This document shows, in pieces, positions 11,511 through 49,982 of a DNA stretch of 64,000 bases; positions within the stretch are counted from its first letter, which is position 1, and each line of letters opens with the position of its first letter. The notes beneath the pieces were generated by a model. It saw only the letters and a program-made list of their open reading frames with translations. It ran no database searches and was not told the DNA's origin. The stretch is from Schmidtea nova (lineage: Eukaryota). Location: assembly GCA_044892505.1 (NCBI GenBank), contig CM097884.1, positions 27,838,001-27,902,000 on the forward strand, in the 5' to 3' direction. Position numbers and translations under genes: made by a program.

Positions 11511-11539
11511 CAAAAACATAAAAGAAGGACAATAGATAA

Positions 11540-19262: not shown

Positions 19263-20789
19263 ATGGCCATCATGAAAACCTTTAAAAACTTTCAATTTTT
19301 CCAAAGATTATTCTCGCATAAATGTTACAAATTTTTGTGCTTCCAAATGCTGCTTGCAATTATGCAAGTGATGAATTATTTACCGAATGGCAATGTAAAT
19401 TGTTGTTCAAATACAAATCCAAAATTCCTTTGCAATTCATATTACAAAATATTCAAAAAAGGAATCATAAGAATGAAAAGACCGGTTTATTTAAAAACTA
19501 TTAAAATGAGTCTCATTGTTATTTTAGTTGTTAGCTTGATTGCCACTATGTTGTTAAGGTGTTCCACGTTTCACTTAGTGACAGATTATTGGAAAAATAA
19601 AGTTTTTAAAGGTTGCAAGTCAATTATGCTTGAATTTTGAACTGAGGAATTCTGAGAAATGTAAATTTTGCAACTTTCAGCGTAAATTGTTTTAATATAG
19701 GTAAATACAATGAACAATAAAATGTTTAAAAATTGAATATTAATATTGTATGGTAATATCTACTGTCGTATTAACATATTGTTGAAAGATTATGTTTAAT
19801 CATTATTTCTCAGAAAAGTAAAATAAGTTCCAAAATATCAAAATTGTTAGCACAATTATTTTCTGGATATTTTTTGCGGTGGTGACAAGGAATTTGTCGA
19901 AATATTTAAATTAAACGGTATTTCACTTTAATTAAATCGTTGCCATGTATATAAATACATATTTTCCCATCATATACATTTATCAAATTAATCAAATCAA
20001 AATATCAAGTAAATTACAAAAACTAAATTGATACAATTACAAAGATGTCATTATAATTATAAAGATAAAATAAATTTATCACAAAATTGTCAAAGATGAA
20101 TTGTCAGGATTTCGAAGATAGAATGTTTTTTTGTCATTGGCAAGGAATATTTGTATTTTATGACTTGTTTGGGGCTGGCTCAATGTGTATTTTCAACCTG
20201 TGTCTAATCATCCCTATGTTATAATCTTCATACAAATCAAATACTTCTACCATTTTCCCTGTATCTAACACAATTGTCAAGTTTCGAAGGATGACAATCT
20301 TAACACCTCCCATCATAGTATTGTTTTTTAAATGAATTGTGGTGACTTTCCCCAACGGGAACGCGGGGGAAATTGCACATAGGGCATCCCTTGAATAATG
20401 AATATATAGAAACGTAAAAATTTCAGTTGTCAAATACGATAATAAAGTGTTGGGCCCGCCAAATCACCTAAAAAACACAACAAAACGAACAAAAGCACGA
20501 AACAATAAAGAAATAATAAAAATAAAAATAGCAAGAAAAACAAATTAAAAATAACAATAAAACGACAAATAATAATTGACAAATTTTCAGTAAGAGGAAA
20601 TTTTGAAAATAAACCGGTAAACAACCGCAAAGGGGGGCCTGAAATCGGAAAAAATAGAATTAAATAAAATAATAGTGCAAATAATTAATTAATTACTTGG
20701 AAAATCAGGACCACCCAGCGAGAAACCGGAAAAGGAAACAAAATAATGTTTAGATTAGATTAAAATAATAAAAATACTTTGATGGACGG

Positions 20790-20834
20790 CCTGATCCTGA
20801 TTGGTCAATCCAACCAGACGGATCAGTATAAATA
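20790..20834 (+). promoter_or_regulatory. Putative LTR Pol II promoter (inverted CCAAT box plus TATA box); second copy at 47653-47697
   Basis: ATTGG at 20800-20804 and TATAAATA at 20827-20834. The block ctgattggtcaa...tataaataccgat is conserved in related LTRs (TATA at 3140-3147 minus strand, 4837, 11815, 13146) while flanks diverge. Confidence 0.6.
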
Positions 20835-21867
20835 CCGATCCAAAAATCACAGACTTAGACTTTTACTTTTCACTCAAGATCAAGACTAAACTTTGATTTG
20901 AGTAAATTTTTTGAAAAAACCGAATTTCATACAAGGAACCACATATTCAAGTACGGAAGTAATTTTTTTTATTTTTTATCTTATATGATGTACCCATGAT
21001 TTTTAGTTTAATTAAAATCTTATATGTAAACGTTATCTTATATTTTTTTTTTGATATTTTAATGCATATAGTTATACTTCCTATGCTGCTCACGCGGCGA
21101 GGGAGTCCGAGTCGTCGTTGTGGGGCCTCACGGTCTCACATGGCGGTTCAACCTTTTTATTGTTTTGGTTTTCATTTTTTGGTAGTTGAAATAATTAAAC
21201 TAAATCATTTAACTAGATATTTATCAGCGAGATTAGAGAATTTTAATGCTTATTTAGTCGAGTAAAATTTTCAGTCACGAAATATCGATAATGCGAATAC
21301 GTCCAGACAGTTTTCTGGCGATAAGTAAAAAATCATCATTTGGTTGTACAGGGGACGTAGCACAGCGGGCGGTAGAGAAGGTCTAAGGGGATACCAGGAG
21401 GGGGTAAAGTACCCGATAGGTGTCAGGTACCCGAGACAAATGGGTTGACACGCTGAGGTTAAATTTGAGGACGAGAGAGCAGGTATAACATGACAAGTTC
21501 TAAAAAATTTTCCAAGTAAATCGATCAAACTGATGAATTTCAATTAAGGTCAAGGTACGGGATATAGCAACTGCATGACAGAGATTAGTAAGACTGAAAA
21601 TCATAAATTCTAAAAATACTTTAAATTCCAATCTAATAAAACCAAAAATCTGTAATTCTAAAAATACTTTTATGCCGATCGCTGTACATAGCGCGGTAGC
21701 TCAAACTAATCTTATCCTGATCGTCGTACATGGCGCAGGGAAACAAATATCTTCTCCGACCGTGGTATATCGCGGTGATGGTTTAAAAATGAGATGGTAT
21801 TAACTAACAGGATTGAGATTAAATATAATTTACATTCAACTCTTTATTGAAAAAAATAAAATGACAG

Positions 21868-22344
21868 ATGCTGACATCATTGAACGAAAGATTAATGCGG
21901 ATTCGGAACTCAGGAAAGGAGGACAGGGCGAATGGATGGGCAAACCAGCTCAAGGAGTTGCCCCAGCCAATTCTGCGGACCATTAACGCCCAAGCGTACA
22001 AGTGGCGACAAGGGTTTGGTCGAAAGTGCCCGTTTTCCATCTGGGACGGAGGAAGCGATGAAATACTCTATCGAGGAGGACCGAACTGGCCTATTTCCCA
22101 AAGGCCGTACTCAAATAAGTTTGGCCGATTAATCGTACTGATCAAGGACACAGATGGACGGACAAGCCGTGTAATTTATTGGGGGCATATCCCTCGTCGA
22201 GAGCTATGCCAACTGGGTCTGTACGAGTTCTTACCACGAAAACCGTTCGGCAAGGAGTGCCAGAAAGGACAACCCTCGTTCTCTTGGGCTCGTCTTCGTC
22301 AGAAACCGATTAACAGCGAATTGCATAGTTTGTTTCGGAGATGA
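21868..22344 (+). CDS. LTR-encoded ORF-A, 158 aa, unknown function
   Basis: Intact and identical in both LTRs. Homologs in at least eight other loci share LKxLP..I.RTIN, CPFSIW, Y.GG..WP and IYWGHIP motifs. Confidence 0.8.
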   Translation: MLTSLNERLMRIRNSGKEDRANGWANQLKELPQPILRTINAQAYKWRQGFGRKCPFSIWDGGSDEILYRGGPNWPISQRPYSNKFGRLIVLIKDTDGRTSRVIYWGHIPRRELCQLGLYEFLPRKPFGKECQKGQPSFSWARLRQKPINSELHSLFRR

Positions 22345-22522
22345 AAACTGATTAACAAATGTTGAAATTGTGTTAAAATATTAGAGTTCATTAGTGAATT
22401 TTTTGTTTTTGAGTTTTGTTTCGCATTTTAATAGTTCATATTCGTAACCTAATAATCCTATGATCAGATTTTAATTTTCATATAATTAAATCATAGAGTA
22501 AATATCCTAAATAAATTATAGA

Positions 22523-23119
22523 ATGAACCCCGATTTGATGCAGAGAGAATTGGAAAAGATGTGGCGGATTCGGAGAGCCCAGGACAAGGAATTGGGTCTC
22601 CTCAAGGCACAATTGATCAAAGCCGAGGCACAGATTGCATACTTGCGCAAAAGCTGGTTTGCTCCGGCCAGAATGAAAGAGCAAATCAGTAAAACCGAGC
22701 GCGCCCAACAGACTGCAGCCGATTACCAAATGGAATGGGAGGCTACAAAGATAGAGCTCCGAAAATGCCTCCATTCCGTGACTGCCTCATATATTGAGAA
22801 GGAGCTCAGAGACCAAATCCGTCCGGTTACGTACCAAGCGTGGACATCAGAAAAGAAGACGGTAAATTCCATTGGCACGGATGTCGCCGATCTAATCGAA
22901 AGTCGGAATGAGACAGCTCCTGCAGCAAATTCAACCACCTCATCGGCGAATACGCACCAAAAACGCAAGCGCATTGGGCAGAAACGGCGAAGACAGAGAA
23001 AATTATTTGCCCAGCAATTACAAAGCCAAGTCGATGGTCTACATCAGATGACCGAGGAGGCATTATTGGCGGAGATTTTTCCTCCGGCGGGAGTTTTTAC
23101 CGAACTCATTAAAAATTAA
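22523..23119 (+). CDS. LTR-encoded ORF-B, 198 aa: coiled coil, WFAPARMK motif, Arg/Lys-rich stretch, Leu-rich C-terminus
   Basis: Intact in both LTRs. A same-length intact homolog at 14782-15378 shows many synonymous codon differences. AATAAA lies at the stop. Confidence 0.85.
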   Translation: MNPDLMQRELEKMWRIRRAQDKELGLLKAQLIKAEAQIAYLRKSWFAPARMKEQISKTERAQQTAADYQMEWEATKIELRKCLHSVTASYIEKELRDQIRPVTYQAWTSEKKTVNSIGTDVADLIESRNETAPAANSTTSSANTHQKRKRIGQKRRRQRKLFAQQLQSQVDGLHQMTEEALLAEIFPPAGVFTELIKN

Positions 23120-23594
23120 ATAAATTGTTGTATTGGCTTAAGAATTTCATCGTTCGTTTAAATCGATTTAATTAACTTTACCAATGATTAGATAAAGATA
23201 GAACAAAAGTATAAATTCATTTTACAAAATATCGAATAGAGATAATTAAATAATTAAGCGAGCATTCGTTGAAATACTTCTCGCAGACTGAGCAATGATA
23301 AAAATAAATTTTCTGAAAGATTCACGCGGAATACATAAGTAGATGATTAAAGCATAAGTCCTTCTAACGGCAGCGATGAACCCGTAAACATAAATGGGGA
23401 GTAGTACTAGCGATAGTGCTCACCTGCCCATCATTGTTTAACCACCCTGCGCATCACCAACTTGATTATATAGGGAAAAAATCAAGGGCGCTTGAGTGTA
23501 GAATTGCAATTTTGTGCATGATCATGGATGAGGGAATCCCTAGTCATTGTTAGAACATTTTTCATCTAACCCCTCCATGAACCCAGCATAAATT

Positions 23595-23612
23595 TGGGGG
23601 CTCAGCCGGGAT
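23595..23612 (+). other. Primer-binding site, tRNA-Pro type
   Basis: TGGGGGCTCAGCCGGGAT, 6 nt after the LTR end; 16/18 match to the canonical tRNA-Pro PBS TGGGGGCTCGTCCGGGAT. Confidence 0.85.
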
Positions 23613-25243: not shown

Positions 25244-25298
25244 GAGGCCAATGAGCCATATTGAATGACCTAGCTAGGCGTTATGAGAGATTAAGTTA

Positions 25299-25700: not shown

Positions 25701-26315
25701 TGAATTATAGAGATATCCGGATAAATAGTAACAGAGGGAATATAGACCCTTAGTATAATCGTCGACGAGATTGAGAGTAATGCGCACCAGTAGTTAAGAA
25801 AATGCGAGTAAAGCTGATTATGCAACCTTAAGTAAAGCATGCAAGGAGAATAGTAAAAAATTTTTTTTGGCTGACCGGAACAACCGGCAGAATAAGTAAA
25901 AACGATTGCTAGCAGGGAATAATGAATAGAAATGATAAAATAATGATAAACGAGTCAGAAAGACTCAGGGAATTAGAGCGCTCGAGCGACCAATAAATTG
26001 GGAAACTGTGGGAAAAGTAATCAATTTGATAAAACATAGATAATTATTACGACGTAAATAGATAATTGTGACCAGTCTATAGATAATTTAAATAGACTAA
26101 AAATAAAGGGGAATCTGGGAATTGGGAAATAATGAAAACCCAGTAATAAGTAATCCCGAAAGAAAGGGAATAAAAGCGCGACGATAACAATAATGTATCG
26201 TTGAGGACCTTTGTATTTTAGATATACCAATCAATCAAATCAATCAATCAAGCAAGAAGAATCAGAAAACGATAAGAGATAGAACAGGAAAATTGAGTAT
26301 ACAAAAGTAATCCCC

Positions 26316-29300
26316 TTGAGAAAAGGAGCAAAGAGTGTCGTAGTAAAGCCAACGGAAAAGAAAGTCGGTAGCAACAGTAATAAAAAAGACAAAAATAGTA
26401 CTACAACAAAATCAACAAAAAAGCAGAAAGCCGGCAAAGATAACCCACAAGGGAGTAAATCGAGGAAAATAATAAGAGATAAATCGATTACCGAGAACGA
26501 TAAATTGTCAATAATAAGCAACAGCTCAAGTAACAAAGAAAACCAAGCCGAACCCAAAGAGAACCAAGCAAGTGAACTAGAGAGCGACGAAACTAACAAC
26601 GATAATATCGAAGAAATAGAACACGAGATAGAACAAGAAGGAGAAATCGACGAAACTAACAACGATAATATCGAAGAAGTAGAAAACGAGGTAGAACCAG
26701 AGATAGAAATCAACGCGAGTGATAACGAAAGTATAATATCAGATAACGAAGGAATAAGAGAAACAGAAAGCGATTCAAGCTCGAGTAAAACGGAAGACGA
26801 ACATAACAACGAACTAGAAACAAGAGGAAACGAAAGTAAAATAACTCAAGACAGCGGAATTGAAATGGGCGAACCAAGAGAAGAAATAAAGGATAAATTT
26901 TCAGGAGAACCGTTTAACGGAGATGCGAGTAAATTAGAAACCTTTTTAAAAGAATTTGGCATATTCGTGGAAGTATGCAAGTGGAAAGCGGAAACAACAG
27001 TAAGCAGAATTCAGTTATATTTGAAAGATAGTGCATTGGACCTATATTTGGAAGCGAAAAATGGTACCAATCCACCTACAAGCTGGACAGCGATAAAGGA
27101 TTTTTTCCAACAAACATTTGGAATAAATAAAGTGCTAAGCGAGGCATTCATAGAATTTTCAAAGAGGAAACAAAAGATGAATGAATCTAATGCGGTATAC
27201 GCGAGTGAACTGAAAAAATTAGCAAAATCGGTATTCAAGGATGGAGGTCCAATAAACGAGGAGTTAATGGCAGCCATCTTCATAGGAGGACTAAGAAGAC
27301 CCGACATAAGAGCGCAAGTAGGATGTCAAGGATGCAAAACCATAGATCAAGCATTAGAAACAGCTAACCGATTTGAATTGCATATGATAGGAAGCGAAGG
27401 CAGAATTTATTTAGCCATGGACACAGCGCAAACCGAACCAGAAGTAAATCTCAACAATCACATTCCAAATTCGCAACAATTAAACCGACCACCCCCTCAA
27501 CGAAGGAATGAAGGAAATAAAGTGCAGAACTTTGAAAATCAAAACAATTACAACCCTCAAAGACAAACAAAACAATGTAAAACATGCGGGAAATTGGGAC
27601 ACTGGCAACAAGAATGCTATCAAAATTTGAATTGCGGAAAATGTGGAGTTAAAGGACATTCGGAGAGTAGATGTTCTACAATAATCTGTTTTAATTGCGG
27701 ACGACCTGGTCACTATTCAAGAAATTGCGGACAAAAAAGTAATCAACGAGGAAACTGGCAGAGTAATGGGAACCGACCAAATTACGGAAATCAAGCAAAT
27801 ACCGTAAACCGACCAGACTATGGGAACCAACAAAACAACAATAACAATAATCAGAACAAAACCACCCCCAAAGAAATTCATTTGATGCAAGAAGTTCAAA
27901 GGTTGACGGAACTGATAAACAATACGACGAGAGGAAATCCGCAAACCAATCAACAGCAAATTAGCATGATGAGAAAAATAGAAAGCGAAAACGAACGATT
28001 GAATCGAGAAAGTCAAGCACGACACGCTCAGGAATGGGCAAGAATACAAAGAGAGGATGAACAAAAACAGCAAGAAAGAGAACGACAACCTCTAAGAATT
28101 AACATGCTAAGAGCAACAAACCAAACAGACACTCGCGAGAAAGAAACCACACTGGAAATGAATTCGATAGACCCGAACCCAGCCGACAACGAAAGTCGAA
28201 AAGAAATAGTACAAAAAGATGAAGAAGTAGAAAAAGAAATAAAAAAGGAAGGGGAAACTGAGATAAACCAAGAAGAGAGAAGAAAAATTTGGAAAAAAGG
28301 AATGATGGTAATCATGCCCAACGACCATATGTTTCGATTCCAATATAACGCAAAAGAAAAGGTGGAAATACTGTTCAATAAAGTAAACCAGATGATTCCA
28401 GGAGTGACAAAACTGCCCAGAGAAGCGTTCTTACAAATAGGAGATGCACCATCAGTAAAATTGAAATTACCGGATATATGGGAAAACGTGGGAGTAACAG
28501 AGACAAAAAGAAATGTGATGAGAATTAAAGAAATAGAATCAGAAGAAATTCCACCACCAATACGTCACGAAACCCGAATCCGGCGAATATTTGAAGGAAA
28601 AATGATAAGAAGACGTTTAAAAGAGATAGACGAGTTGGGAAAGAAAATGGAAAAAGTCGAAGTAATAGAAGACAAGAGTGAACCAACACCAGAAATTGAC
28701 AAAAACGAACCAGAACCAACGGAGAATATACAAGGAGAAACGAACCAAATAGCACATATTAATATGCTAAGAAATACCACCAGAGAGTTTTCCGATGAGG
28801 AAGAAGATAGTGACATCAGCAGCCTAGCAGGAGACATATTAAACGAATCCGAAGACGAAAATAAAGAGAGAGAAGTAATAAAGACCTCAGAACCTACACA
28901 GATAAAAGTAGATGAAATCCAGAAATTATTAGATAACTCGCTAGAGGTAATATATAACGAAGAGTTCATGGACAAGAAACAATATCGGAAATTCATGAAA
29001 GCATTATTACAAATGAACTACAAAGAATGGTTACAAGATCGGGAAATAGACATGTTAAATCGATACGTAGGGAAATTAATAGAGGAACCACTCCTCAATT
29101 ACACCATCTCAATAATAATAAATACATCTACACCAAGAATCTGGATCAAAACTCCATTTACAGACGATATCTACAGATGGGTAGAGGATAGACTAGGGAG
29201 CTCATATAAAAACAAATTCATCTATTCGCAGAATAGACTCGTAAAGAGAAGAACGCACTTAGTGGAAACAGGTATATGGCCAGGAGAAATAACTCTGTTA

Positions 29301-32300
29301 TCAATATGCGATGAAAAGGAAGAAGAGAACCTACAAGAAGTTGCAAGGGAGGCAAACACGTGCTTCGAAAGGAGAATAAAACCTCGGTTAGAATACGAGA
29401 AAGAACGAGTCTTACGAAAGAATCTAAATTCCCTGATAGAACAAATCATACCACAAGTCAAAAAACATAGAAAAGAGTTAATGAGAAGCGAATACGAGAA
29501 ACTGAAACGATGTATTGAGTGCATACGTGACACAAGTCACACGAGATGGTCACAAATCTCACACGACAAATTAATCGCAAAAATGGGAAAAACAATGTTC
29601 AGACAAGGAAAAATAACAGATCTAAAAATTTCGGTAGAATTACCTAATGAGGACACCAAAGAAATCGAAGTGGTAGCGGATTGCACCATTAGGGAATTAA
29701 TAAATGTCATCAACGAGACACTAGTGCAAAGAGAACCAGAAGACGAATGGGAAGACGACATAATCATACAATACAACGAACATGTATTATGGGATCACGA
29801 TGAGAGACGACTATATAAAATCGGTATATGGGATAATCACCAAACCATCCACGTTAGCAGAATGGACGATACACCAAGAGAAACTGCTAAAGACGAGAAA
29901 AAAGAACGGGAACGACGGAAAGAAGTTGTGCGTAAATTACAACAAATAGTAGAAATTTATCGAAATTGGCGAATTTGGCCAGAGTGGGAAAATGTATTAG
30001 AAAAACTCAATCTCAACAGACGAATACGAACACCCGTAGAAAAACAATGGAACGAGAAAGGAAAATGTTGGGAACCAAAAGAAGGGGAATATGAAGAGGA
30101 ATATAAAAGAGGAATTGAAGATGACTGCGAACCAGAGATAGGAAGAGTTTGCATGGTAACAAGGAAAGCTACGCCAATAGACCTAGATGGACCAGAAACC
30201 GCGGCTATGTGGCTAGAAAGGGAAAAGCAAAAAACGGAAGAATTTGTCGAAATATTAAAAACTAATGCGCACGGTAAGAGAAAAGTAATAAAGGGTCTCG
30301 CAGATTTTTTCGTGGTAAATGGGGAAGATATAACATGCTTGCGTAAAGTAGCAAAAGCAATCGCGGAATATAAAAGAGTTAACGAGTGGTGTCCGGAACA
30401 ACTAGACCACGTAATTAGGAAATGGAGAAATCAAGAATTCTCGCAGGAAATTCCACAGAAAGTACATTTAAGAATAATATACCCAAACAAGGATAAGGAA
30501 GAGTTGTGGGTAGGAATAGCAGAAAAAATTCGAGATATTAAAAAGAAATTGAGATACGAACCACCATTCCATTTACAACACCAAGGACGATCATTAGATA
30601 ACAGTTTGGAAATCGGAATAACACCAGCACAATTAGACCTCATGAATACCTTGACAGTAGAAGCAATAGCGGGTCAACCATTGAAACGTAAAGAAGAAAA
30701 CCATAAACCACACGGAAGTATAAGCACGCCGAGCCCGATCAAATCAGCACTAACACCAGGGACAAGTTCGAGACGATCTGAGACAACACCCAGAGGAAAT
30801 AGAGAAAGGACTCCACCACAACCATATGACGTGGACGAAATATTTACAGACAGCGACGATATGATAGAAGAATTAACCGAATTAACAAAGGAAAAAGACG
30901 ACAATATTTTTGAAAGAATACAAGAATTACCTACGACAATACAAGTAACCAACACCGGAGAAACAGAAGTCGAACAGGAAATAATAGTAGAAGAAGTCAA
31001 CGATTTAACAGAAGATGAAACCAGAGGAGCGTATGCCGAAAATGTACAATTAACCCAGGAAATGGAAAGATGGTTAGAAGAAAGAGCTAACGAACCAAGA
31101 GATGTCACGGAAGAAACAGGACGGGCAACAAGGTTTGTGGAAACAGGTACAGGAATGGATAGACGACCTCGAGGTAGACCCAAGACAGATCCAGCAACAG
31201 TAGTTATCAGAAATAAGGATGAAAAGAGACAAGATCAATGGGAATTATGTTTAAAGAAATTAAACAAAATCGCGGAGATAAAAGAAAAAGAAACAACACC
31301 AATATGTCAAGGGGAGGAATGGATATCAAAAACAATAATGGAGATATTGGCAATAATTGATCCGGAATTGAGAAAATACTGGCGCTTAACTGAGATAAGC
31401 GAAAAGGCGAAGTCATTACACAGCGCAATCGCACCCATCTTACCGGAATTCATAAAAGAAAAGACGAAATCAAATCACTTAGACTGGCAAGGAACCACTA
31501 TGTTAATAAAGAAACTGACAGAAGGAGCGGAAACAGATAACAAATACGTAATAGCTATTGCATACACGATCTACAATCTGTTGACACTGAGTAGAGGTCG
31601 ACCAAAACCCACTGCATTAGAGAGACATATAAAAAATACCGCAAAGATTATAGCTAGAGAAATAGAACCCTACGTCATTAACAAAGGAGGATGGGAAACA
31701 TTTATAAAAACTAACCAGAAGAAAACGCAAGCCAAGAATATGAAAAAGAAATTCGAAAAAATATTGGAAGAGTTAGCAAAAGAACAAGCAGGAACGGGAA
31801 ACGTGAAGTCATCAATGAATTTGAGTTCTATAATAATGATGATGTTGATATGGATGATTAGCACCGATAGCGCAACAGCATTCGAAGTGTTTGATTGCGA
31901 CCAAATGAAGTTAGGAGAAAAGTATTCATTGAGAGGTACGGAGCAATGCAAAGATGCGACTCCAGTAGAGTTGCAAAAGATTAAAAAGGAACAATGGTAC
32001 CACGTGTATCAAGAAGCAGAACTCATAAAGACAATGGTGAATGAATGTAAGGTGCAGAAGACGAGATTCGCATTCTACTGCGGGAGAGGACACTATTCAG
32101 CAATTGTCATGCCAGGAACGGAAAGAGAACCAATCGTGTTACAAGGAGAAGACTGCGAAGCACTGTTTAAACATGGAGAAGTAACAACAAGAGATAAAAT
32201 CAAGATAAGAGGAAAGCCAGGAATGATGATGCAACAGACGTACTATGTAGCAGGACGGATTACGGGAGGAGAAGGATATTGTCAAGGAGAAACCTACCCG

Positions 32301-35300
32301 ATATTCGGAGTACCCGCAACCAACTTAGTGGTGATGGATACGTATATAGTCGAATTGAAAAGCTATGAAGCATTCTTTGAACCAACAACGGGAGAAATGA
32401 AAACGTTATCCATGTGTAAAATCGACAGGAGCATGTGTCAAACGGGAATGTCAACATTAGTGTACAAACCAAAGGTAAACGAATGTCAGTTACAACTGCT
32501 ACAAGGAGCAAAGTTCGACGAAATCCAAGGAAAAACGTTCCAGGAAGAAGACGATGACGACAAAGATAGAGCAAAGCATCTCAAGGAAGCTTTAGAGAAT
32601 AAAAGACAACTGAAACCAGATCATAGAGAAAAACGAATAGAGATGAGAGCCACACCAACAGTATTGATAACCACAAATCAAGATGTGGGAATGAGATTCA
32701 TAAAAGGGAAAGCAACCCTTAAGTGTAGTACAACGGTATACGAAACGAATTATCCAGGAATATATGTGTCAAAACAAGAAGTGCCAAATGCGAAACCCAA
32801 AATCGACACAATGGATATCAAACTACACCTATATGTGAATAATAAAATGGATTTCCTATTCCATAGAGGACAAGCCTCATTACAAAAAGTGTATTACGAT
32901 CTGATAAACAATGATTGCATACTGAATCGAGAAATATTAAAGACAAAGTTGGCCGTAGCGATTACGAATCCAGATAGCGCGATGCCATTATTACCACTGA
33001 GAGAAGGACATTTCGGAAGAGTGGTTGGAGAAGCAATGTATGTATACATTTGCGAAAAGACACACGCGTCGCTAGCAGCAACAACGCAGTTGAAACCTGG
33101 AACCTGTACAAATGAGTTAGAAATCGATTACAAAGGAAAAGTACGATACGTTCAACCGGTGACGAGAATCATCAATCCACCAGGGTTTGAACCAAATCCA
33201 TTCAACTGTAGTAATGCGTACGGACCACTTTATCAAAAACCAGATGGTAAATGGGTTATGTTCCCAGGAAGATCCGAAGTGATAGCACCAAGAGAATTCG
33301 AGCTAATGCAGTTGTCAAAGGATAGGCAATTCAGCGACGTAGATGTCTCAAACAATGGAATATATAGCCCAAAAGATTTAGAAGCAGCAAGGCAGAATAT
33401 ATTATTCCCAGCGAGAAGAGAAGCATTACTGTCAAATATCGTAACGATAACAGGAGGAACGGATTATCGAGAAGGACCAAATTATGAACTATTGTTGTCA
33501 CCAGCACATTTCAAGAAAGCCACCGAAAATATGATGAAAGCAATGTGGGGAAGATTCTTGATATTCGGACAAATGATGGCTGGAATACTAGGGGTAATAT
33601 TAATAATCCAAATCGTCAGAGTGATAATAACGCAAATGCTCGCGTGTTTTGACATCTACAAGAGAGAAAAGAAAGTGAATTGGAAAATGGTAGTAGGGTT
33701 TTTACCATTCCTTGCGAAAACAATGGTGTTACACGGTCACTCAAAAGATATCCACCGAATAAAAAGACTCCTGAAGATATTAGCAAAAATGAAGGGAACA
33801 GACGAGGAAGTAGGACGCAAATTTAAAAAGATAATGAATGACGAACAAGCAAGACAACAGCTCAAGAGAGAAAGAAAAGGTTTATGGGAGAGGATGAAAG
33901 GATATAAAACCCAAAATGATTCAAGTGACGACGACGATGACGATGACGACTATAAGGGAGGACAAGTGTATAAGAACCAAGCACCACAATACATCGAAAA
34001 GAATCCAGCCGACGCATGGAAATGTTACGCACCTCCACCAACCCTGTATCAAGAACCACTACAAGGAGGAAAAAATAGCACGATGCAAATGATGCCAATG
34101 ACAAATGTATACCCCATGATACCAGAAGATTATAAAATGAGAAGATGTAGAAGCGTAGATCCACAAGGAGATACACACACGATCGCAGTAATGTCATCAA
34201 ACACAGGTCCAGTATTAACCACGACAATAGAGATTAACGGAAGGGAAATCGAAGCAATGATCGACACGGGAGCAAACATTTCCGCCATCGACATCAAATG
34301 GATACCACAAGAGCAAAGACGAGAAATAGAAAGGACAAACGTCCATGTAATTGCATGTAGCAAAGAAGTTGTAGAAGTAGCAGGAAGATGGTGGGTAAAA
34401 ATACGCCATTTAAACACGGAAATCGATACGTACGTAGCTGTCATACCAGCATTAAGCGTACCTTGCATTATCGGAACAGATTTGATGCCAGCACTATTTA
34501 ATGAGATTGTAATCGACCTCGGAACAATGAGACTAAAAGATCGCACAGGACAAATATGCGCAATAGAAGCCAAAGTGACAAGTTCAAAGCAAATGATAAT
34601 ACCCGCAAGAAAGGAGAAAATATGTTACGTAAAAATAGATCCGACAATCCAAGGGGATATGATTTTCGAACCAAGTAAGAGATTCGAGAAAAGAAAAGCG
34701 TTGCCAATGGCAAGAGGACTAGTTAACATAAACGATGATGGAGAAATCCCAATAAACGTAGTAAACTTCGATGAAGAGGACAAAATAATATACGAAAACG
34801 AAAGATTAGGTAAATTAACCCCAATGATGGACATCGAACTACCAATAGAAGGGGCAGAGAAAGATAAAGAGCCAACCTGGAATATTGATAGTGAATTATT
34901 AAATGAGGATCAAAGGAAGCAGCTAGAAAAACTCCTGATAGAGTATAAGGATATATTTGCAGCATCCGATTTAGATCTAGGAACATGTGATGTCACACTA
35001 CATACAATACCATTAACAGATGAAACACCAATTGCATTAAGGCCGTACAAATTAGCGGAAGCACAGAAAGCAGTAGCAGAAGCAGAAGTGAAGAAAATGT
35101 TGGATGCAGAAGTAATCGAACCAAGTTGTTCACCCTGGCAATTTCCAGTGGTAATGGTAAAGAAGAAAGATGGAACACAGAGATTCTGTATAGATTATCG
35201 AAGATTGAATACAGTGACAAAAAGGGATACTTACCCATTACCAGACATTAATGAAATGCTATTAACATTACAAGGAGCAGCATATTTTACATCGTTAGAT

Positions 35301-38300
35301 CTGAAAAGCGGATATTGGCAAATAAAAATGAAGGAAGAAGATAAAGAGAAAACTGCCTTTACCATCGGTAGAGATTTATATCAATTTCGAAAAATGCCAT
35401 TTGGATTAACGAACGCACCAGCATCATTTCAGAGATGCATGAATTTCGTCACCCACGGAATAAAGCAGTGCATGGTCTACATCGACGACTTATTGATTTA
35501 CTCTAGTACATTCGAACAACACATACAGGATATTCGAGATGTATTCGTTAGACTTAGACAATGGAAGTTAAAACTCAAGCCATCCAAGTGTGACTGGGCG
35601 AAAGAGAAAGTAACATTTTTAGGACATATAGTGTCAGCAAAAGGAAAAGAACCGGATCCTAGAAATATCGACAAGGTAAAAGAATGTCCAGTACCAAAAA
35701 CAATAACCCAGATACAAGAGTTTCTTGGGTTGTGTGGATACTACAGAAAGTTTATAAAAGATTACGCCGGAATAGCAAAACCTATACAGGAACTGGTAAA
35801 GAAAGATGTATCATTCATATGGGGAGATGAACAACAAACAGCCTTTGAAACGTTGAGAGATAAATTGATAACCGCACCCATATTGGTACACCCAGACTTT
35901 AAGAAGCCATTCCTACTTGCAACAGATGCAAGCGGATATGCAGCAGGAGCCGTATTAGGACAATACGACGACGAAGGAAAGGAACGCGTAATCGGATATT
36001 ATAGCCGGACATTCAAAAAGCATGAGAAAAATTACTCAGTAACAGAACGGGAAGCACTAGCAATTATATTAGCTATTAAACACTTTAAATATTTACTATG
36101 GGGTCACATCATCTGCATAACAACAGATCACCAACCGCTTGTATGGTTAGGACAGCACAAGGAAACATCCAGTAGATTAATGCGATGGGCAATGCAGTTA
36201 CAGGAGTACTCACCGGACATAAAATTTAAATCAGGAAGAGCGAATGCGAATGCAGATTGTATGTCAAGACTGACATTTCCAGAACTAACCGATCCTGATG
36301 TACAACGAATTTGTGTATTAATAGCGGAGGATTTAGATTTTAGTGAGTTAAAGAAAGATCAACAAGAAGACAAAGAATTAGGACAAATCATAGAGTTCCT
36401 AACATCTCGAAATATGGAAGTATTCAAGGATAATAAGGAACTAAAGGAACATATAGGAAAATATCAACATCGCTACATAATAAATAAAGGATGGTTGTTA
36501 ATACAAGACGGAGAAAAGAGATTGATGTGTTTACCGGAAAACAGAAGGAAAGAGATAATGATCCAGTACCATGATGGGAAATTAGGAGGTCATATGTCCG
36601 AGAAGAAGACAATAAACCGTATGAGACAAAAATATTATTGGCGAACAATGGAAGAAGATATAAAGGAATGGATTAAAAATTGTCTAACTTGTGCAACCAG
36701 AAAGGATAGTGGGAGGAAATGGAAAAACCCGCTACAACCAATGCCGATACCAGCAGAGCCAATGACAACTATAGCAATGGACGTAATAGGACCATTACCG
36801 GAAAGTCTAAACGGAAATATTTATATATTGGTAATAACGGATTATCTGACGAAATTCCCGGAAGCATTTGCCATGCAAGACCAAAAAGCAAAAACCGTAG
36901 CAAAAATTCTAGTGGAAGAAATATGTTGCAGATACGGAACTCCAAAACAAATACTCACAGACCAAGGAACTAATTTTATGAGTGAGTTATTAAACGAGGT
37001 GACAAACTATTTCAGAATAGCAAAATTGAGAACTTCACCATATCACCCGCAAACGAATGGACAAACGGAGCGATTCAACGGCACATTGATTAGAATGTTA
37101 TCAAACTACGTCAGCAAACACCAAACTGACTGGGACGAATACATAAAATTATGTTTAATGGCATACCGAATGTCGATACATGCAGCAACAAAACTAAGCC
37201 CATTTCAACTTATGTATGGAAGAGAATGCAACATGCCCATAGATTTAGAGTATCAGCCACCATTATCGCAATATATGGAAGATGACGACTACGTAACCAA
37301 ATTCAAAGAAAGAATGCAGGAGATATGGAAAACGGCAGAACTCAACATTAAATTTTATCAGGAAAGTTATAAGGATTTACACGACCAGAAGAAAAATGTT
37401 AAAGCGAACGACCTAAAACCAGGAGATTGGGTGATAATAGAAACTCCCGAAATAATACCAGGAACTGTTAAGAAACTCCAAAGACCTGGAAGAGGACCTT
37501 ATGAAATTATATACAAAAAGGACAACAATGTCAAAGTTAAGCTAATAAATCGACCGTTAATACGACCCATATATGTAAACACCTGCAGATGTAAGAAGGT
37601 GCCTAAAACGATAACTACAACACCAGAAAATCGAATAATAACTAGATCACAAACAGCCAGGATAAATATGCTCAGAGCTAACGCAACTGAAGACGACAAA
37701 GCAGAAATAAGGCAAAAGGAAATCAGAAATAAAGAAATCATATTGAAGGCGAGAGAGATAATGGGAAGATGGCATGTTAGAGACGAAGCAGGCATATCAA
37801 GGGATATTAGACATATAATTAGCCGTTACGCACAAGGATTACCAACCGAACCAATTATTTCTGAATTATTGGAAAAAATCCCTGAAATACTCTTATTGAA
37901 AGATGTAGGAGGACAACCAGCCTTACATAATGCGATAGAGTGTAAAAACATGGAAAGAGCAAAAGAATTCCTAAAAATCGCAAAAGAAACAAACCAAAAC
38001 TTGGACGTAGGGAATCGGGAACGAGAAACTCCATTAATGACAGCCGCAATCCACCAAGCAGATAAAGAAATGATAGATCTATTGATAAAAGCTCATTTCA
38101 GTTGGACAGAACGAGATAGAGAAGACAAAACAGTACTAAATCACGTAATATGGAGTTCTCACCAACCAATGCTGAAATACATAATAGCTAACTGCACTTG
38201 GGAGATAGACGAATTGGTTAAAAGAGACATTATCAAAGAGGCAATCAAAATTGGTAAATGCAACACGATCCGTAAGTTAATCAAATGGAAACGACCAGAA

Positions 38301-41300
38301 GAGGATACATGGGTCTTAGACATAAACGAAGTATACAGCGAAGGACAAAACGCGCTGTTAAGATATCTTCTGAAATTTACTTGTGATCAGAAGACATTAC
38401 TAACCTTATTAGACAGAGGAAACATAAACATCACAAAGAATGAAGAAGAATACAAATTCGATAAAGAGAAGGAAGCCTTATTCAATAAGATTAGGAAATG
38501 GTGTGCGAAACCACTTGATAAACTAATAACATACAAAGACATAAACAATTTTAACGAGAAATACCAGACGATAGTAAGCGAATATGAGGAATTAGTAAAA
38601 ATCTTAAACCATCCCGAAAAATGCAAACAGGTTTTAGAGAAAAGAGAAAGAGAAAGTAACAAGAAACTCACACCACTCTTCAAAGCTGAAGCACCATACC
38701 AAGCTAGACTAGATGCGATACAAGAAAAAGCAAAAGAATTGTTACCGGAATTCGAGAATAGTAAACATGCACTGGAAATACTCGGCGCATTAGTTGAAAA
38801 AGTACACGCATACGCAAAAGGAACATACAATGGTAACGACATAGTAATAATAAAAAAGGAGATGCCAGTAACATTCCTATTACCAAAAGACGGAATAATG
38901 CCCATACATAGAGCTCTACGAAATGGCAAAGATAGGAAAGTAATGGAAATTGCAAGAGTAATGCTAAATTGCGGAAGCAATATGAATATGATAGACGAGA
39001 AAGGAGATACACTTATGGTATTTGCAGCAAGGGCCAAAACGAAAACAAAGGTATTAGAAGAACTATACAAAGCAGGTGCAGGACTTACAGGAAAGACAGA
39101 TAAAGATAATTCGATATTGGATGTAGCATTATTAACACACAATTGGGAAATGGTCAATTTCATTAAAACCGTCCCAAATCAGGAAGAAATAGATCACCTA
39201 ACTGATACAGTCAAGAAACCCAGTGTACTAGCAATGATGAACAACGTCGAACTAACAGAATCAATACTTACGTGGATAAATCCTAATACTAACGAACCAG
39301 CATTCAGGATTAATAAGTTTACAGAACATAACCAAAACTGGTGTATAAGAAGTGCCTTAATAACGTATAAATGGCCAGAGATATTGAAGATGTTTATGGA
39401 AAGAAAAGATCTAAAAATCACAACCAGCCCGAAAGAGGAAAAATACACAGGCAAATGGAAAGAATTGATGAAGACATACATCAACAATTGGATCAAGGCC
39501 AAAAAGGAAATCTTGGAACATAAATCCACTAACAAAGTAATACCGGAGCAGGTAGAAACACAAGAATTTGAGGCAAGTAATCTAACGACATTGGCATATG
39601 CAAAATTGATAGAAGAAATCAATGTCGAGGACGACATTTTCGACGAGCCAGGGGGAGATGACAATACAGATAGTGACGACGGTAACAACTCAGAAAATTC
39701 AAACGATCACGAACCACCCGATAAAGAGGAAAACGAGAGAAAAGACAAGAAACGAGACAAGGAAGAAAAGAAAAGTGAAGACGAAAAACAAAGAGATGAA
39801 GATGGAGAACAAGGAAAAAACGACCAAGGAGATAAAAATGACACCCAAAGAACAAGTTATAAATCAACCATAAAACCATTCTTCAAACCAGAATTACTAT
39901 TATTAACAGTGATTTTAACGTTAATTAACCCAAGTCAAGGAATGACATGTGAAGAAAGGGCAATAATACAAATAAAAAACGCAAAAGGAATCGAACGAGT
40001 ATGTTGGTCAAAAAAGGACAAAATCACGGAACAAAATAGCCCGATGGATTGCAGAATCTCAAAACACGAGCAAGAGATCATAGAGATCAACGACCTAGAT
40101 CTAGATACCTGGTACAAAATATGCACCGTTAGGAAACAAAAGCATCCAAGATCACACAACACAATCGCATGTGCAAAATACCAAACACCTAAAGCAGCCA
40201 TGACAATACAACAGTCACCCAAAGGAGATTACATCATCGGAAAATGTGGAAGAACAGAGACACAGGGAACAGAAAACAAAAAACCCCAGGTAATAGATAA
40301 GCAAACAACACCAACCCTACGAATTACAATAAAGAGGCCCGAAGCAAGAGTTGCCACAAACGAAACCGAAAGAGTGTCTTACCAAATGGAAGTATTATGC
40401 TTAGCACTCATACTAATAATAATAAAACGATTAGAGGAAGGAATAGAAATTGAAACTATGACAATAACAGAAGTGGAAGATACACAGAACACTAACATAA
40501 AATGTTGGGCGAGGAATGACGAAGAAATCGGCGTAAACGAAATAAGGAAAAGTCGAAAGCCAACAACAAACAAAGTAATTAAAGTATCCGAAGTAAGAGC
40601 AGACAAGATGTACAAACTATGCCTACTTGAGAAAGAGAGGAACAAGAAAGGTACCACAAAATGTAAAACATTCCAACCTGGAGAGGTAATAAAGTTCCGA
40701 AGGAGAACGAGGAAGAGAAATAAACAAATCAAGCGGAAAGTAAACATAACATTAGAAGTAAAAGAGATAGAACCAAATGTGAAAGGAGTATGCTGGAGGA
40801 AGTACGAAAAGGAAGTAAATAAAAGAACGACACCACAATGTCAAACAAACACAGGAACAACGACGATTCAAATAAAAGGTTTAGAAAGTAAACAAACCTA
40901 CGAAATATGTTTGGTAAAGAAAAATGATCAGATAACGATAAACGACCTAGAATGCGGAATATACACCACTTCATCCGGAACAAGAACTAAAACGTTAACA
41001 CGGAAAAATAAAAGGAAACAACGAAACAAAGGAAAACCGAAGTACACCACTACCTTTAAAAACAATAAACAACCAATAAGCCAGGAAGTTACGACAAAAC
41101 CAGAGAGAAAGACATCAGCAACTCTAACATTATGGAAAATAGAGAATAAAACATTGGAGATATGTTGGATAATAGTCCAGAAAAATATAAGAAGACAATC
41201 AAGAGAGTGCAGAAAAACAAATAAAGAAATCAAGATCGAAAAACTACAATTTATTAGCGAGTACGTCGTATGCGCAATAGAAAAAATGGACAAACTAGGA

Positions 41301-43818: not shown

Positions 43819-43911
43819 ATAAATAAAGCGGAAAACTGTAAATATGTAAAAATAAAAACAAGAAAAATCCAAAAATAAATGACAAGTCGAATGTATATAT
43901 TATTGTAGAAA

Positions 43912-45288
43912 ATGGACAGAGAAGAACGAATAATCGAAATTTTGAGATTAGAAAACAGAAAATGGAGCAAGAGGCTCACATGCGGAAAATGTAACAATTT
44001 ATTACGAGAACCCAAACAAACGATATGTGGATGTAGAATATGTACAAAATGTATACAAGAATTAGATGCAACAGGAATAACAACATGCCCAGAATGTAAG
44101 GAAGGAAGAATAGTGTTGGACGAAATCAGAACGGACAAAGCAACCCAAAGAGAAATTATGAGCACCACAACGGAGTGCGTAAATACACCTTGTACATGGC
44201 AAGGACAAATAAGTAATCTAGAAAATCATATGGAAAAGTGCGAGGAGAAAGGAGCCGAATGCGAGAAGTGCCAACAAACAATAATTCTAAAGAAGAGAGA
44301 ACAACACAAGGACGAATGTAAAGAAGAAGAAATCGCATGCGAGTATTGTGAAACTCGAGAAACAAGGGGAAAAATCGAAGAAGAACATTTGAATATAACA
44401 GAGGAGAAAGTATGCGGACAATATGTAAGTAACTGTCCAAACAATTGCGAAATAACAGAAGAAGTAAAGTTACATGAACATTGGAAAGTATGTACCGAAA
44501 GACCAAGAGAATGTCCATATAACAAACAGGGATGCAAAGAAAAGCGGACGCGGCAATCAATGAAACAACACCTAGAAGAAGCAGCACTAACGCATGTAGA
44601 AATGACAAACGAAACGACAAAAGAAACGGAACAGACAATCCAGAAATTAGAAAAAGAAGTAGAATCACATAAGATAATGATGAGTTTACTACTAGAAACA
44701 AGAGAGCAGTTTGAACTAACTCGCGAAAGAATGGAAAAGAAAATAATAGCCATAGAAGAATTAGGAAAAGGAATGAAAATACAATATAATCAGTTAATAC
44801 GAGAAATTGACGAAAGAAGGGACTTACCAATTGCACCTTACCTATGGAAAGTAACAGATTTCAGAGACAAACTAGCAGAAGCCAGAAATATGACGAAAAC
44901 AGCAGTAATAAGCCCACCATTTTATTTATGGAAAAACGGGGTTAAAATAAGATTGAAAGTATACCCAAATGGAGACGGAAGAGGACAAGGAACACACGTG
45001 TCAATATTTTTCTCGCTATGTAAAGGAGAATACGATGACCTAATAGAATGGCCCTTGAAAGTAGGAGTCATTATAAGAATCAAAAGTATGGGAAAACCAG
45101 TAGAAAAGTTCTTTGAAACAGACAAACATACGAGTACGAGCGAAAAACCAACGACAGAATGCGGACTAGCAGCAGGAGAACCAATGTTTATAAGGAAAGA
45201 AAACCTATGGGAGCGACTATATGCAGACACGCTATACATAGAGATGGAGAGGCATGAGAAAACAGACAGAAAAGGATGGTTGGCGTAA
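43912..45288 (+). CDS. Full-length TRAF-family protein (RING, TRAF zinc fingers, coiled coil, MATH/TRAF-C), 458 aa, intronless
   Basis: CGKCNNLLREPKQTICGCRICTKC RING; CTWQG..LENHMEKC fingers; YLWKVTDF..SPPFY..YPNGDGRGQGTHVSIFF..GEYDDLIEWP MATH signature. Confidence 0.93.
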   Translation: MDREERIIEILRLENRKWSKRLTCGKCNNLLREPKQTICGCRICTKCIQELDATGITTCPECKEGRIVLDEIRTDKATQREIMSTTTECVNTPCTWQGQISNLENHMEKCEEKGAECEKCQQTIILKKREQHKDECKEEEIACEYCETRETRGKIEEEHLNITEEKVCGQYVSNCPNNCEITEEVKLHEHWKVCTERPRECPYNKQGCKEKRTRQSMKQHLEEAALTHVEMTNETTKETEQTIQKLEKEVESHKIMMSLLLETREQFELTRERMEKKIIAIEELGKGMKIQYNQLIREIDERRDLPIAPYLWKVTDFRDKLAEARNMTKTAVISPPFYLWKNGVKIRLKVYPNGDGRGQGTHVSIFFSLCKGEYDDLIEWPLKVGVIIRIKSMGKPVEKFFETDKHTSTSEKPTTECGLAAGEPMFIRKENLWERLYADTLYIEMERHEKTDRKGWLA

Positions 45289-47310: not shown

Positions 47311-48730
47311 TGTTGGGCCCGCCAAATCACCTAAAAAACACAACAAAACGAACAAAAGCACGAAACAATAAAGAAATAATAAAAATAAAAATAGCAAGAA
47401 AAACAAATTAAAAATAACAATAAAACGACAAATAATAATTGACAAATTTTCAGTAAGAGGAAATTTTGAAAATAAACCGGTAAACAACCGCAAAGGGGGG
47501 CCTGAAATCGGAAAAAATAGAATTAAATAAAATAATAGTGCAAATAATTAATTAATTACTTGGAAAATCAGGACCACCCAGCGAGAAACCGGAAAAGGAA
47601 ACAAAATAATGTTTAGATTAGATTAAAATAATAAAAATACTTTGATGGACGGCCTGATCCTGATTGGTCAATCCAACCAGACGGATCAGTATAAATACCG
47701 ATCCAAAAATCACAGACTTAGACTTTTACTTTTCACTCAAGATCAAGACTAAACTTTGATTTGAGTAAATTTTTTGAAAAAACCGAATTTCATACAAGGA
47801 ACCACATATTCAAGTACGGAAGTAATTTTTTTTATTTTTTATCTTATATGATGTACCCATGATTTTTAGTTTAATTAAAATCTTATATGTAAACGTTATC
47901 TTATATTTTTTTTTTGATATTTTAATGCATATAGTTATACTTCCTATGCTGCTCACGCGGCGAGGGAGTCCGAGTCGTCGTTGTGGGGCCTCACGGTCTC
48001 ACATGGCGGTTCAACCTTTTTATTGTTTTGGTTTTCATTTTTTGGTAGTTGAAATAATTAAACTAAATCATTTAACTAGATATTTATCAGCGAGATTAGA
48101 GAATTTTAATGCTTATTTAGTCGAGTAAAATTTTCAGTCACGAAATATCGATAATGCGAATACGTCCAGACAGTTTTCTGGCGATAAGTAAAAAATCATC
48201 ATTTGGTTGTACAGGGGACGTAGCACAGCGGGCGGTAGAGAAGGTCTAAGGGGATACCAGGAGGGGGTAAAGTACCCGATAGGTGTCAGGTACCCGAGAC
48301 AAATGGGTTGACACGCTGAGGTTAAATTTGAGGACGAGAGAGCAGGTATAACATGACAAGTTCTATAAAATTTTCCAAGTAAATCGATCAAACTGATGAA
48401 TTTCAATTAAGGTCAAGGTACGGGATATAGCAACTGCATGACAGAGATTAGTAAGACTGAAAATCATAAATTCTAAAAATACTTTAAATTCCAATCTAAT
48501 AAAACCAAAAATCTGTAATTCTAAAAATACTTTTATGCCGATCGCTGTACATAGCGCGGTAGCTCAAACTAATCTTATCCTGATCGTCGTACATGGCGCA
48601 GGGAAACAAATATCTTCTCCGACCGTGGTATATCGCGGTGATGGTTTAAAAATGAGATGGTATTAACTAACAGGATTGAGATTAAATATAATTTACATTC
48701 AACTCTTTATTGAATAAAATAAAATGACAG

Positions 48731-49207
48731 ATGCTGACATCATTGAACGAAAGATTAATGCGGATTCGGAACTCAGGAAAGGAGGACAGGGCGAATGGAT
48801 GGGCAAACCAGCTCAAGGAGTTGCCCCAGCCAATTCTGCGGACCATTAACGCCCAAGCGTACAAGTGGCGACAAGGGTTTGGTCGAAAGTGCCCGTTTTC
48901 CATCTGGGACGGAGGAAGCGATGAAATACTCTATCGAGGAGGACCGAACTGGCCTATTTCCCAAAGGCCGTACTCAAATAAGTTTGGCCGATTAATCGTA
49001 CTGATCAAGGACACAGATGGACGGACAAGCCGTGTAATTTATTGGGGGCATATCCCTCGTCGAGAGCTATGCCAACTGGGTCTGTACGAGTTCTTACCAC
49101 GAAAACCGTTCGGCAAGGAGTGCCAGAAAGGACAACCCTCGTTCTCTTGGGCTCGTCTTCGTCAGAAACCGATTAACAGCGAATTGCATAGTTTGTTTCG
49201 GAGATGA
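48731..49207 (+). CDS. ORF-A copy in 3' LTR
   Basis: Same translation as 21868-22344. Confidence 0.8.
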   Translation: MLTSLNERLMRIRNSGKEDRANGWANQLKELPQPILRTINAQAYKWRQGFGRKCPFSIWDGGSDEILYRGGPNWPISQRPYSNKFGRLIVLIKDTDGRTSRVIYWGHIPRRELCQLGLYEFLPRKPFGKECQKGQPSFSWARLRQKPINSELHSLFRR

Positions 49208-49385
49208 AAACTGATTAACAAATGTTGAAATTGTGTTAAAATATTAGAGTTCATTAGTGAATTTTTTGTTTTTGAGTTTTGTTTCGCATTTTAATAGTTC
49301 ATATTCGTAACCTAATAATCCTATGATCAGATTTTAATTTTCATATAATTAAATCATAGAGTAAATATCCTAAATAAATTATAGA

Positions 49386-49982
49386 ATGAACCCCGATTTG
49401 ATGCAGAGAGAATTTGAAAAGATGTGGCGGATTCGGAGAGCCCAGGACAAGGAATTGGGTCTCCTCAAGGCACAATTGATCAAAGCCGAGGCACAGATTG
49501 CATACTTGCGCAAAAGCTGGTTTGCTCCGGCCAGAATGAAAGAGCAAATCAGTAAAACCGAGCGCGCCCAACAGACTGCAGCCGATTACCAAATGGAATG
49601 GGAGGCTACAAAGATAGAGCTCCGAAAATGCCTCCATTCCGTGACTGCCTCATATATTGAGAAGGAGCTCAGAGACCAAATCCGTCCGGTTACGTACCAA
49701 GCGTGGACATCAGAAAAGAAGACGGTAAATTCCATTGGCACGGATGTCGCCGATCTAATCGAAAGTCGGAATGAGACAGCTCCTGCAGCAAATTCAACCA
49801 CCTCATCGGCGAATACGCACCAAAAACGCAAGCGCATTGGGCAGAAACGGCGAAGACAGAGAAAATTATTTGCCCAGCAATTACAAAGCCAAGTCGATGG
49901 TCTACATCAGATGACCGAGGAGGCATTATTGGCGGAGATTTTTCCTCCGGCGGGAGTTTTTACCGAACTCATTAAAAATTAA
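49386..49982 (+). CDS. ORF-B copy in 3' LTR
   Basis: Same as 22523-23119 except one L/F change. Confidence 0.85.
   Translation: MNPDLMQREFEKMWRIRRAQDKELGLLKAQLIKAEAQIAYLRKSWFAPARMKEQISKTERAQQTAADYQMEWEATKIELRKCLHSVTASYIEKELRDQIRPVTYQAWTSEKKTVNSIGTDVADLIESRNETAPAANSTTSSANTHQKRKRIGQKRRRQRKLFAQQLQSQVDGLHQMTEEALLAEIFPPAGVFTELIKN

Follow-up and report, generated by a model that had tools for sequence, protein, structure and literature searches.

A predicted Env signal peptide adjoins a divergent Bcl-2-like fold in the polyprotein of a giant planarian LTR retrotransposon and may tether it at the endoplasmic reticulum

The window analyzed in this study is a stretch of 64,000 nucleotides from Schmidtea nova (GenBank assembly GCA_044892505.1, contig CM097884.1, positions 27,838,001 to 27,902,000 of the forward strand), and the features described below lie on its plus strand unless noted otherwise. 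It contains an LTR retrotransposon of 30,004 bp (20448-50451) that has TG...CA ends and is bordered on both sides by the 4-bp target-site duplication AAAG. The 5' LTR (20448..23588) and the 3' LTR (47311..50451) are each 3,141 bp long, with 3 differences between them. A sequence resembling a primer-binding site, which we take to be tRNA-Pro-like, was seen at 23595..23612, and the 5' leader between the LTR and the open reading frame contains tandem arrays of 29 bp x13 and 32 bp x13 (24861-25698). Elsewhere in the window, several older, diverged LTR copies in both orientations form a nest of related insertions (344-15837), and remnants of RT-RNaseH/integrase are found on the minus strand (8370-9503).

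A single polyprotein frame of 5,422 aa (26283..42551; first Met at aa195, nt 26865) runs in the order Gag-side region, Bcl-2 fold, Env, protease-RT-RNase H-integrase (PR-RT-RH-IN), ankyrin repeats, and FN3-like membrane modules. The Gag-side region carries CCHC zinc knuckles (27576..27728; PF00098, E 7.7e-9) and, judging from its position, would also include a capsid domain, for which no Pfam match was found in that region. The region that separates Gag from the Bcl-2 fold (29600-30800) appears, by eye and from weak ESM Atlas leads, to hold one or two stretches resembling ubiquitin or SUMO; for aa1289-1506 the leads all scored below 0.9 and several were ubiquitin-like. A sequence comparison of aa1101-1206 with the PDB gave no match. 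A ubiquitin/SUMO-like domain has been reported for the planarian Burro elements in the accessible portion of PMC6431247. The motif RPRGRPK (31164..31184), presumably AT-hook-like, directly precedes the Bcl-2 fold and is present too in relatives with and without that fold. Downstream of it, the Env ectodomain (31881..33572) is a Monjiviricetes-type fusion glycoprotein with 14 Cys (PF24664, E 1.1e-70), followed by a stop-transfer transmembrane helix (aa2431-2449; 33573..33629; KD19 2.55), the Pfam-supported protease, RT, RNase H, and integrase (34221..37106), and the ankyrin repeats (37923..38192; PF12796, E 3.3e-14).

Past the ankyrin region (39870-43331), two related FN3-like modules were observed (local alignment score 324), each with a signal-peptide-like helix before it (aa4538-4553 and aa5199-5216) and a TM-like helix after it; the polyprotein seems to rely on internal signal peptides as a general principle, and these modules may represent surface decoy or receptor-like proteins. 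In the window copy the frame stops at 42549-42551 and continues in the same frame for 259 aa beyond; other copies have open frames of ~5,640-5,740 aa. An intronless accessory TRAF-like ORF (43909..45288) with RING, zf-TRAF, and MATH (E 6.8e-21) domains according to Pfam is followed on its 3' side by a 362-aa coiled-coil ORF and then a 201-aa ORF with two hydrophobic segments. A genome-wide comparison, in which 144 of 2,235 candidates were scored, gave at least 144 matches to the element family with protein identities of 94-100%; 10 further subfamilies with the same Bcl-2/Env junction were also identified.

The domain preceding this junction (aa ~1671-1813; 31293..31721) is, with near certainty according to profiles and a predicted structure, a divergent Bcl-2 fold. 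Because the window sequence alone is too divergent, the assignment rests on relatives and structure prediction: by itself, the window domain had no Bcl-2 match in Pfam and no usable match in the ESM Atlas, reached Bcl-xL at E 1.8 among PDB sequences, and gave a pLDDT of 45 in single-sequence AF2. A search of 1.84 billion representatives returned 44 matches, seven of them with a GGW 49-79 aa before the Env cut site described below; word-based homologue searches returned no homologue beyond one already known. A 10-sequence profile (A1) had Bcl-xL as its best PDB match (E 3.4e-7), and PF00452, at a threshold of E<=1, was listed in 14 of the 15 members of a second alignment (A2; best 3.4e-8), with the window copy as the sole exception. 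The best of five AF2 models built with A2 reached a pLDDT of 70.6 (70.6 to 49.1). Foldseek gave no match for the domain model at E<=0.001 (best 5.2e-3), and 49 of the 49 PDB rows listed were Bcl-2-family entries, while the top matches in a viral structure library were mostly viral Bcl-2 homologues. Among 48,161 chains compared by VIA-align, Bfl-1 ranked first (Z 12.8, rmsd 2.9, 137/150 aligned), ranks 1-35 were all Bcl-2 folds, and the first unrelated row scored Z 5.4. The initial annotation had proposed a Bcl-2-like domain here, with a comparison of predicted structure against Bcl-2 folds as a check, and both the profile match to Bcl-xL and the model's best match to Bfl-1 bear out the fold.

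The canonical motifs of the family are unevenly kept. The BH2 motif GGW (PYVINKGGW; aa1802-1804; 31686..31694) has a GW that is invariant in alignments A1 and A2, and the BH1 motif NWGR is replaced in the window copy by TDNK (31533..31544). Across 17 aligned lineages, the NWGR position retains Gly in 0/17 and Trp in 0/17, and Lys or Arg stands at the Arg position in 11/17. A sister element outside this 17-lineage count (L031:1411-3195, minus strand) keeps GINWDRVV in its Bcl-2 domain, the sequence nearest to canonical NWGR that was seen; in this copy, a stop interrupts the linker ahead of the helix. The Gly and Arg of NWGR matter for Bcl-2-family interactions (accessible text of PMC9027176), but Bcl-xL G138A still binds BAD (as given in the available part of 10.64898/2026.06.23.733989), and BH3 binding is therefore doubtful yet possible; judged from the motif, an anti-apoptotic action of the domain through BH3 binding would be unlikely. 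About a dozen apparently host Bcl-2-like loci were also observed in the genome (L021-L029, L032, L040, L042, L046, L049), several of them without NWGR, and L026 has the best host-locus score against the element profile (E 4e-7), making it a lead for the donor lineage. The Bak-like locus L021 contains an LxxxADxF segment.

The Bcl-2 domain is under purifying selection. Among 60 copies (the window copy, the 19 highest-ranked ones, and 40 taken further down the list of 144), variants common to at least three copies gave a pN/pS of 0.04 for the Bcl-2 domain (61 synonymous, 10 replacement), 0.03 for the signal peptide (6 synonymous, 1 replacement), 0.15 for the linker (9 synonymous, 6 replacement), and 0.05 for Env (39 synonymous, 7 replacement), values that are biased down because the copies, intact and mostly without stops, were chosen from a ranking by protein similarity. 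In comparisons of sister subfamilies, the domain has changed more quickly than Env (dN 0.18-0.68 vs 0.02-0.42); of eight pairs, five were computable, with a domain omega of 0.2-0.5 in four and of 1.55 in the pair with L063, in which the start of the Bcl-2 domain is replaced by a simple repeat.

At the junction itself, the coordinates agree with the initial annotation, which had described a hydrophobic helix with an A-x-A site and FEVFDC about 40 aa after GGW: MNLSS begins exactly 40 residues on (aa1845, nt 31815), and the SATA/F boundary falls at nt 31880/31881 (aa1866/1867). The segment from 31815 to 31880 is, as judged by the small-residue (-3,-1) rule, hydropathy, and conservation, very likely an internal Env signal peptide with a predicted signal-peptidase cut at SATA/F, after nt 31880, and is also the candidate tether of the Bcl-2-bearing precursor. 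It fits the format of cleaved signal peptides, an h-region of ~7-15 hydrophobic residues (here 31827-31859) and a polar c-region, with a 13-residue hydrophobic run followed by STDSATA, and SIIMMMLIWMI is the first 11-residue stretch in the frame with a Kyte-Doolittle mean >2.2 (best upstream value 1.87). In the 18 Bcl-2-bearing lineages, the spacing from GGW to the cut is 45-79 aa, and exactly one hydrophobic segment lies between BH2 and the cut in 18/18.

To score the cut site, 47 sequences were aligned on the conserved xxAYDC start, comprising the window, 36 of the 44 matches (the other eight begin at or past the cut site), and the 10 subfamilies of the same genome. The (-3,-1) rule holds in 44 of these 47 homologues, against a background of 11%, and in only 2-27 of 47 when the cut site is moved by 1-3 residues; in the 60 copies, Ala occupies position -1 in 60 and position -3 in 59. 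Ten Bcl-2-less sequences share the h-region and xxAYDC, among them P0009, an MRP-L47 fused to Env that is probably a gene-calling chimera, and a stand-alone glycoprotein (P0038; 719 aa, PF24664 E 9e-185) carries both at its N-terminus. PF24664 matches in relatives begin within the helix. MNLSS was considered as a conserved separate Env start and rejected: Met is present upstream of the helix in only 10 of 18 lineages, and the helix would therefore normally be read internally, with no separate Env start. The first Met and the signal are separated by >1,600 residues, which is far for co-translational targeting. Topology parity is consistent with a signal role, with no hydrophobic segment upstream of the helix and one strong helix at the end of Env before PR; the Gag side would be cytosolic, Env with its 14 Cys luminal, and PR/RT/IN again cytosolic. 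Two contig sets covered all 30 bins with no dominant joint at the Bcl-2/Env junction among the joints listed, a result that has no bearing on expression or splicing.

The order in which helix and domain were acquired was addressed with an Env tree of 19 rows (LG+G4, rooted on P0038, with P0009 and short fragments left out), which has a long outgroup branch and an unresolved middle. Four Bcl-2-less rows branch first, and 9/9 Bcl-2 rows fall in one starred clade (96/95) together with five Bcl-2-less rows; a Bcl-2-only clade was rejected (p-AU 0.0076). An earlier tree from a shorter alignment (200 columns) was mostly unresolved. Additionally, three relatives (P0003, P0004, P0006) have retained GRPRK upstream, together with the helix, and are missing the Bcl-2 fold. 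From these sequences, the helix is taken to be the ancestral Env signal peptide, older than the Bcl-2 gain and outlasting Bcl-2 loss, and the simplest reading would be one Bcl-2 gain before an existing signal peptide with losses afterwards. Given the Env tree, the 18 lineages would represent one retained event rather than 18 independent ones. An origin of the helix as the leftover of a host Bcl-2 tail is disfavoured, since relatives without Bcl-2, stand-alone ones included, have this helix in front of Env as well. A further polyprotein of the same family (P0011; Gypsy-type, Env-PR-RT-IN) is filed in NCBI under a Flavobacteriaceae MAG, a record that is probably a mis-binned eukaryotic contig.

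Since there is one reading frame, the Bcl-2 fold is made together with Gag and Env, and the co-synthesis in each round that the initial annotation had proposed is thus forced. Its proposal that one cut would release a Bcl-2 protein fared differently, because the upstream product begins at Gag (first Met aa195) and a single cut at SATA/F would leave the Bcl-2 fold on a ~1,670-aa Gag-side precursor and not free. A pattern of RINML / ICAI / ICVL / VCMV recurs at domain borders (27876-37676) and, as a motif defined post hoc, suggests protease trimming of the polyprotein. The nearest protease-like site found, and the last candidate retropepsin site before the Bcl-2 fold, is RVCMV at aa1289 (30144..30158), ~380 aa upstream of the fold; in most sister families no such motif was seen ahead of Bcl-2, nor was a protease-like site found by motif in the window linker.

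Combined, these results favor, at a probability of roughly 0.7, a model in which an ancestral Env signal peptide secondarily tethers a captured Bcl-2 fold at the ER within a Gag-Env-Pol polyprotein, where it would act as a modulator of host stress, death, or immunity. Under this model, the element acquired a Bcl-2-fold domain from a host, probably on a single occasion, immediately before the signal peptide; the domain brought no transmembrane tail with it, and some lineages have since lost it. Synthesis of the first ~1,850 residues would take place in the cytosol, the helix would open ER translocation at aa1849, signal peptidase would cut at SATA/F (aa1866/1867), and the C-terminal helix of Env (aa2431-2449) would bring PR/RT/IN back to the cytosol. 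Cleavage would leave the Bcl-2 fold as the final folded domain of the Gag-side product, with the signal-peptide remnant holding it to the ER on the cytosolic side in the manner of HCV core or flavivirus capsid, and the protease of the element would probably trim it from Gag to a product of ~575 aa or smaller. Its likely role would be the dampening of host stress, death, or innate signalling at the membrane of particle assembly, through a non-canonical surface and beside the TRAF and ankyrin cargo of the element.

The initial annotation had gone further, assigning a single helix to both the Env signal and the tail anchor of an anti-apoptotic Bcl-2 protein. The part of that claim that stands is the signal peptide (44/47), together with the position of the helix as the sole possible Bcl-2 tether (18/18); it is probable that the Bcl-2-bearing product is tethered to the ER at least transiently. 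Adaptation as an anchor was not detected: four measures of helix length and hydrophobicity were alike in 18 Bcl-2-bearing and 10 Bcl-2-less sequences (p 0.45-0.55), and because hydrophobicity is equal with and without Bcl-2 and the helix appears older than the Bcl-2 capture, it is not evidently adapted to that role. A lasting, functionally used anchor is somewhat less likely than not. Mitochondrial tail anchors carry basic residues after the helix. The host Bcl-2-like tails end in RK, whereas the last eight residues of the helix (ISTDSATA) contain 0 Lys/Arg in the window and 0-2 in relatives, such that a basic mitochondrial-type tail is absent after the window helix, which would in any case be C-terminal only upon cleavage at SATA/F. 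With NWGR lost to TDNK and no such basic tail, the label 'anti-apoptotic' is unsupported. The flavivirus-style precedent invoked for the helix holds in that an anchor there doubles as a signal, but the analogous anchor in Flaviviridae is later removed by a second cleavage, according to the accessible portions of PMC7601889 and PMC5402940, and the tether may therefore be transient.

A stronger form of the anchor reading, in which the remnant is lasting and selection has shaped it as the membrane anchor of an anti-apoptotic, BH3-binding Bcl-2 protein, one for each Gag/Env, is considered unlikely, although several observations fit it. Adjacency is retained in 18/18 lineages at ~20% identity with a second helix absent, the GGW-to-helix distance (23-57 aa) brackets that of the host Bcl-2-like genes of the genome, and the median helix KD19 of 1.9 in Bcl-2-bearing lineages matches the values for host Bcl-2-like tails taken from exons before splicing (1.75, 1.71, and 1.86, with a fourth at 1.0). 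The Lys or Arg at the BH1 Arg position in most aligned lineages and the NWDR of L031 also agree with it, as does the report, cited in the available text of PMC13465017, that Burro1 shields stem cells from apoptosis via an IAP domain. On the other hand, the unshifted helix measures, the weakness of the window helix (KD19 1.46 vs 2.55 for the Env TM) with its uncharged end, and the absence of the NWGR Gly and Trp from every aligned lineage (tempered by the BAD binding of G138A Bcl-xL) argue against it, and adjacency may stem from one capture rather than repeated selection. A speculative extension, held slightly less probable still, is that the Env signal peptide has been made the permanent anchor of the captured Bcl-2, with each Gag-Env-Pol translation placing one pro-survival fold on the ER, and perhaps in budding particles that carry it into the next cell, and with producer stem cells thereby spared death from ER stress; such an arrangement would have been kept across at least 18 lineages at ~20% identity.

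A tether that is transient or irrelevant, with the linker or remnant cut and the Bcl-2 fold working in soluble form or in the nucleus as an immune modulator like poxvirus N1/A46/A52 alongside TRAF and ankyrin partners, also appears unlikely. The loss of NWGR, the poxvirus folds among the structural matches (N1L Z 7.5, A52 7.0, A46 6.4), the TRAF and ankyrin cargo, and the AT-hook-like motif directly upstream are all compatible with such a modulator, and in the Flaviviridae precedents a second cleavage regularly follows (PMC7601889, accessible part); however, cellular and herpesviral pro-survival proteins score higher (Z 11-12.8) than poxviral immunomodulators, the motif search found no protease-like site in the window linker, and the linker is still conserved. 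That the helix is an uncleaved signal-anchor, or the domain a structural (matrix-like) Gag/Env spacer without a signalling role, is improbable: the window domain is the most divergent of the 15 and alone lacks a Pfam Bcl-2 match, it is placed between Gag and the membrane helix, and it outpaces Env between sister subfamilies, but the (-3,-1) pattern is kept, Bcl-2-less relatives manage without the domain, and the BH2 GW is invariant.

The preferred reading, that of an Env signal peptide secondarily tethering the Bcl-2 fold, provides a precise and testable processing model for the junction, with predicted ER entry at aa1849, a cut at aa1866/1867, and return to the cytosol at aa2431-2449, and it would place the action of the Bcl-2 fold at the ER and not obviously at mitochondria. 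If the anchor proves lasting and functional, a viral signal peptide would have replaced the tail of a captured host death regulator. Burro-like elements are abundant, and one of them reportedly aids stem-cell survival by another domain (accessible text of PMC13465017).

Bfl-1, Bcl-xL, KsBcl-2, A179L, and BHRF1 resemble the domain in a predicted helical fold over ~135 residues, a BH2 GGW, and a hydrophobic segment after BH2. Cellular and viral Bcl-2 proteins are encoded by stand-alone genes and are inserted post-translationally. Here, in contrast, identity to them is 10-16%, NWGR is lost, and the segment is internal, with 3,500 residues after it and no basic tail.

The closest known systems are Burro and GYPSM1, giant Gypsy-like LTR retrotransposons of planarians in which, according to the available part of PMC6431247, a BCL2-like motif and then an in-frame Env lie between Gag and protease; the BCL2-then-Env order is thus already published for Burro. 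Those elements are ~30 kb long with one huge polyprotein (Gag-BCL2-Env-PR-RT-RH-IN-ankyrin), MATH/TRAF cargo, and an Env that matches mononegavirus fusion glycoproteins, as described in the same portion of PMC6431247, and the present element, at 30,004 bp and with one giant ORF in the order Gag-BCL2-Env-PR-RT-RH-IN-ankyrin, is Burro-like. It differs in that its TRAF cargo is encoded by an accessory ORF on the 3' side and its ankyrin region is followed by FN3-like membrane modules; a scan of 13 segments, short ORFs and LTRs aside, showed none of the BIR/IAP cargo of Burro1. The accessible text of PMC6431247 does not take up the BCL2/Env junction in terms of a signal peptide, an anchor, or cleavage, and a shared anchor/signal role was not found in the searchable literature, although Lee et al. 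2026 (Dev Cell; on the IAP function of Burro1), Grohme et al. 2018, or their supplements may cover the junction. Anakin and other LTR elements with a chuvirus-type glycoprotein likewise represent the capture of a Monjiviricetes-type glycoprotein by an LTR retrotransposon; the available portions of those reports (PMC7642597; PMC12440569) make no mention of a Bcl-2 domain, and here the glycoprotein lies in-frame between Gag and protease. In HCV core/E1 and flavivirus anchor-C/prM, the C-terminal helix of the upstream protein is the signal of the next glycoprotein (PMC7601889; PMC5402940, accessible parts), and the signal peptidase cut leaves the upstream protein ER-anchored, an outcome that for the present element is predicted from sequence. 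The difference is that here the Bcl-2 fold adjoins the helix at the end of a ~1,670-aa Gag-side retroelement precursor. Overall, the predicted design is, by analogy, the HCV core and flavivirus anchor-C scheme applied to a retroelement Bcl-2 fold.
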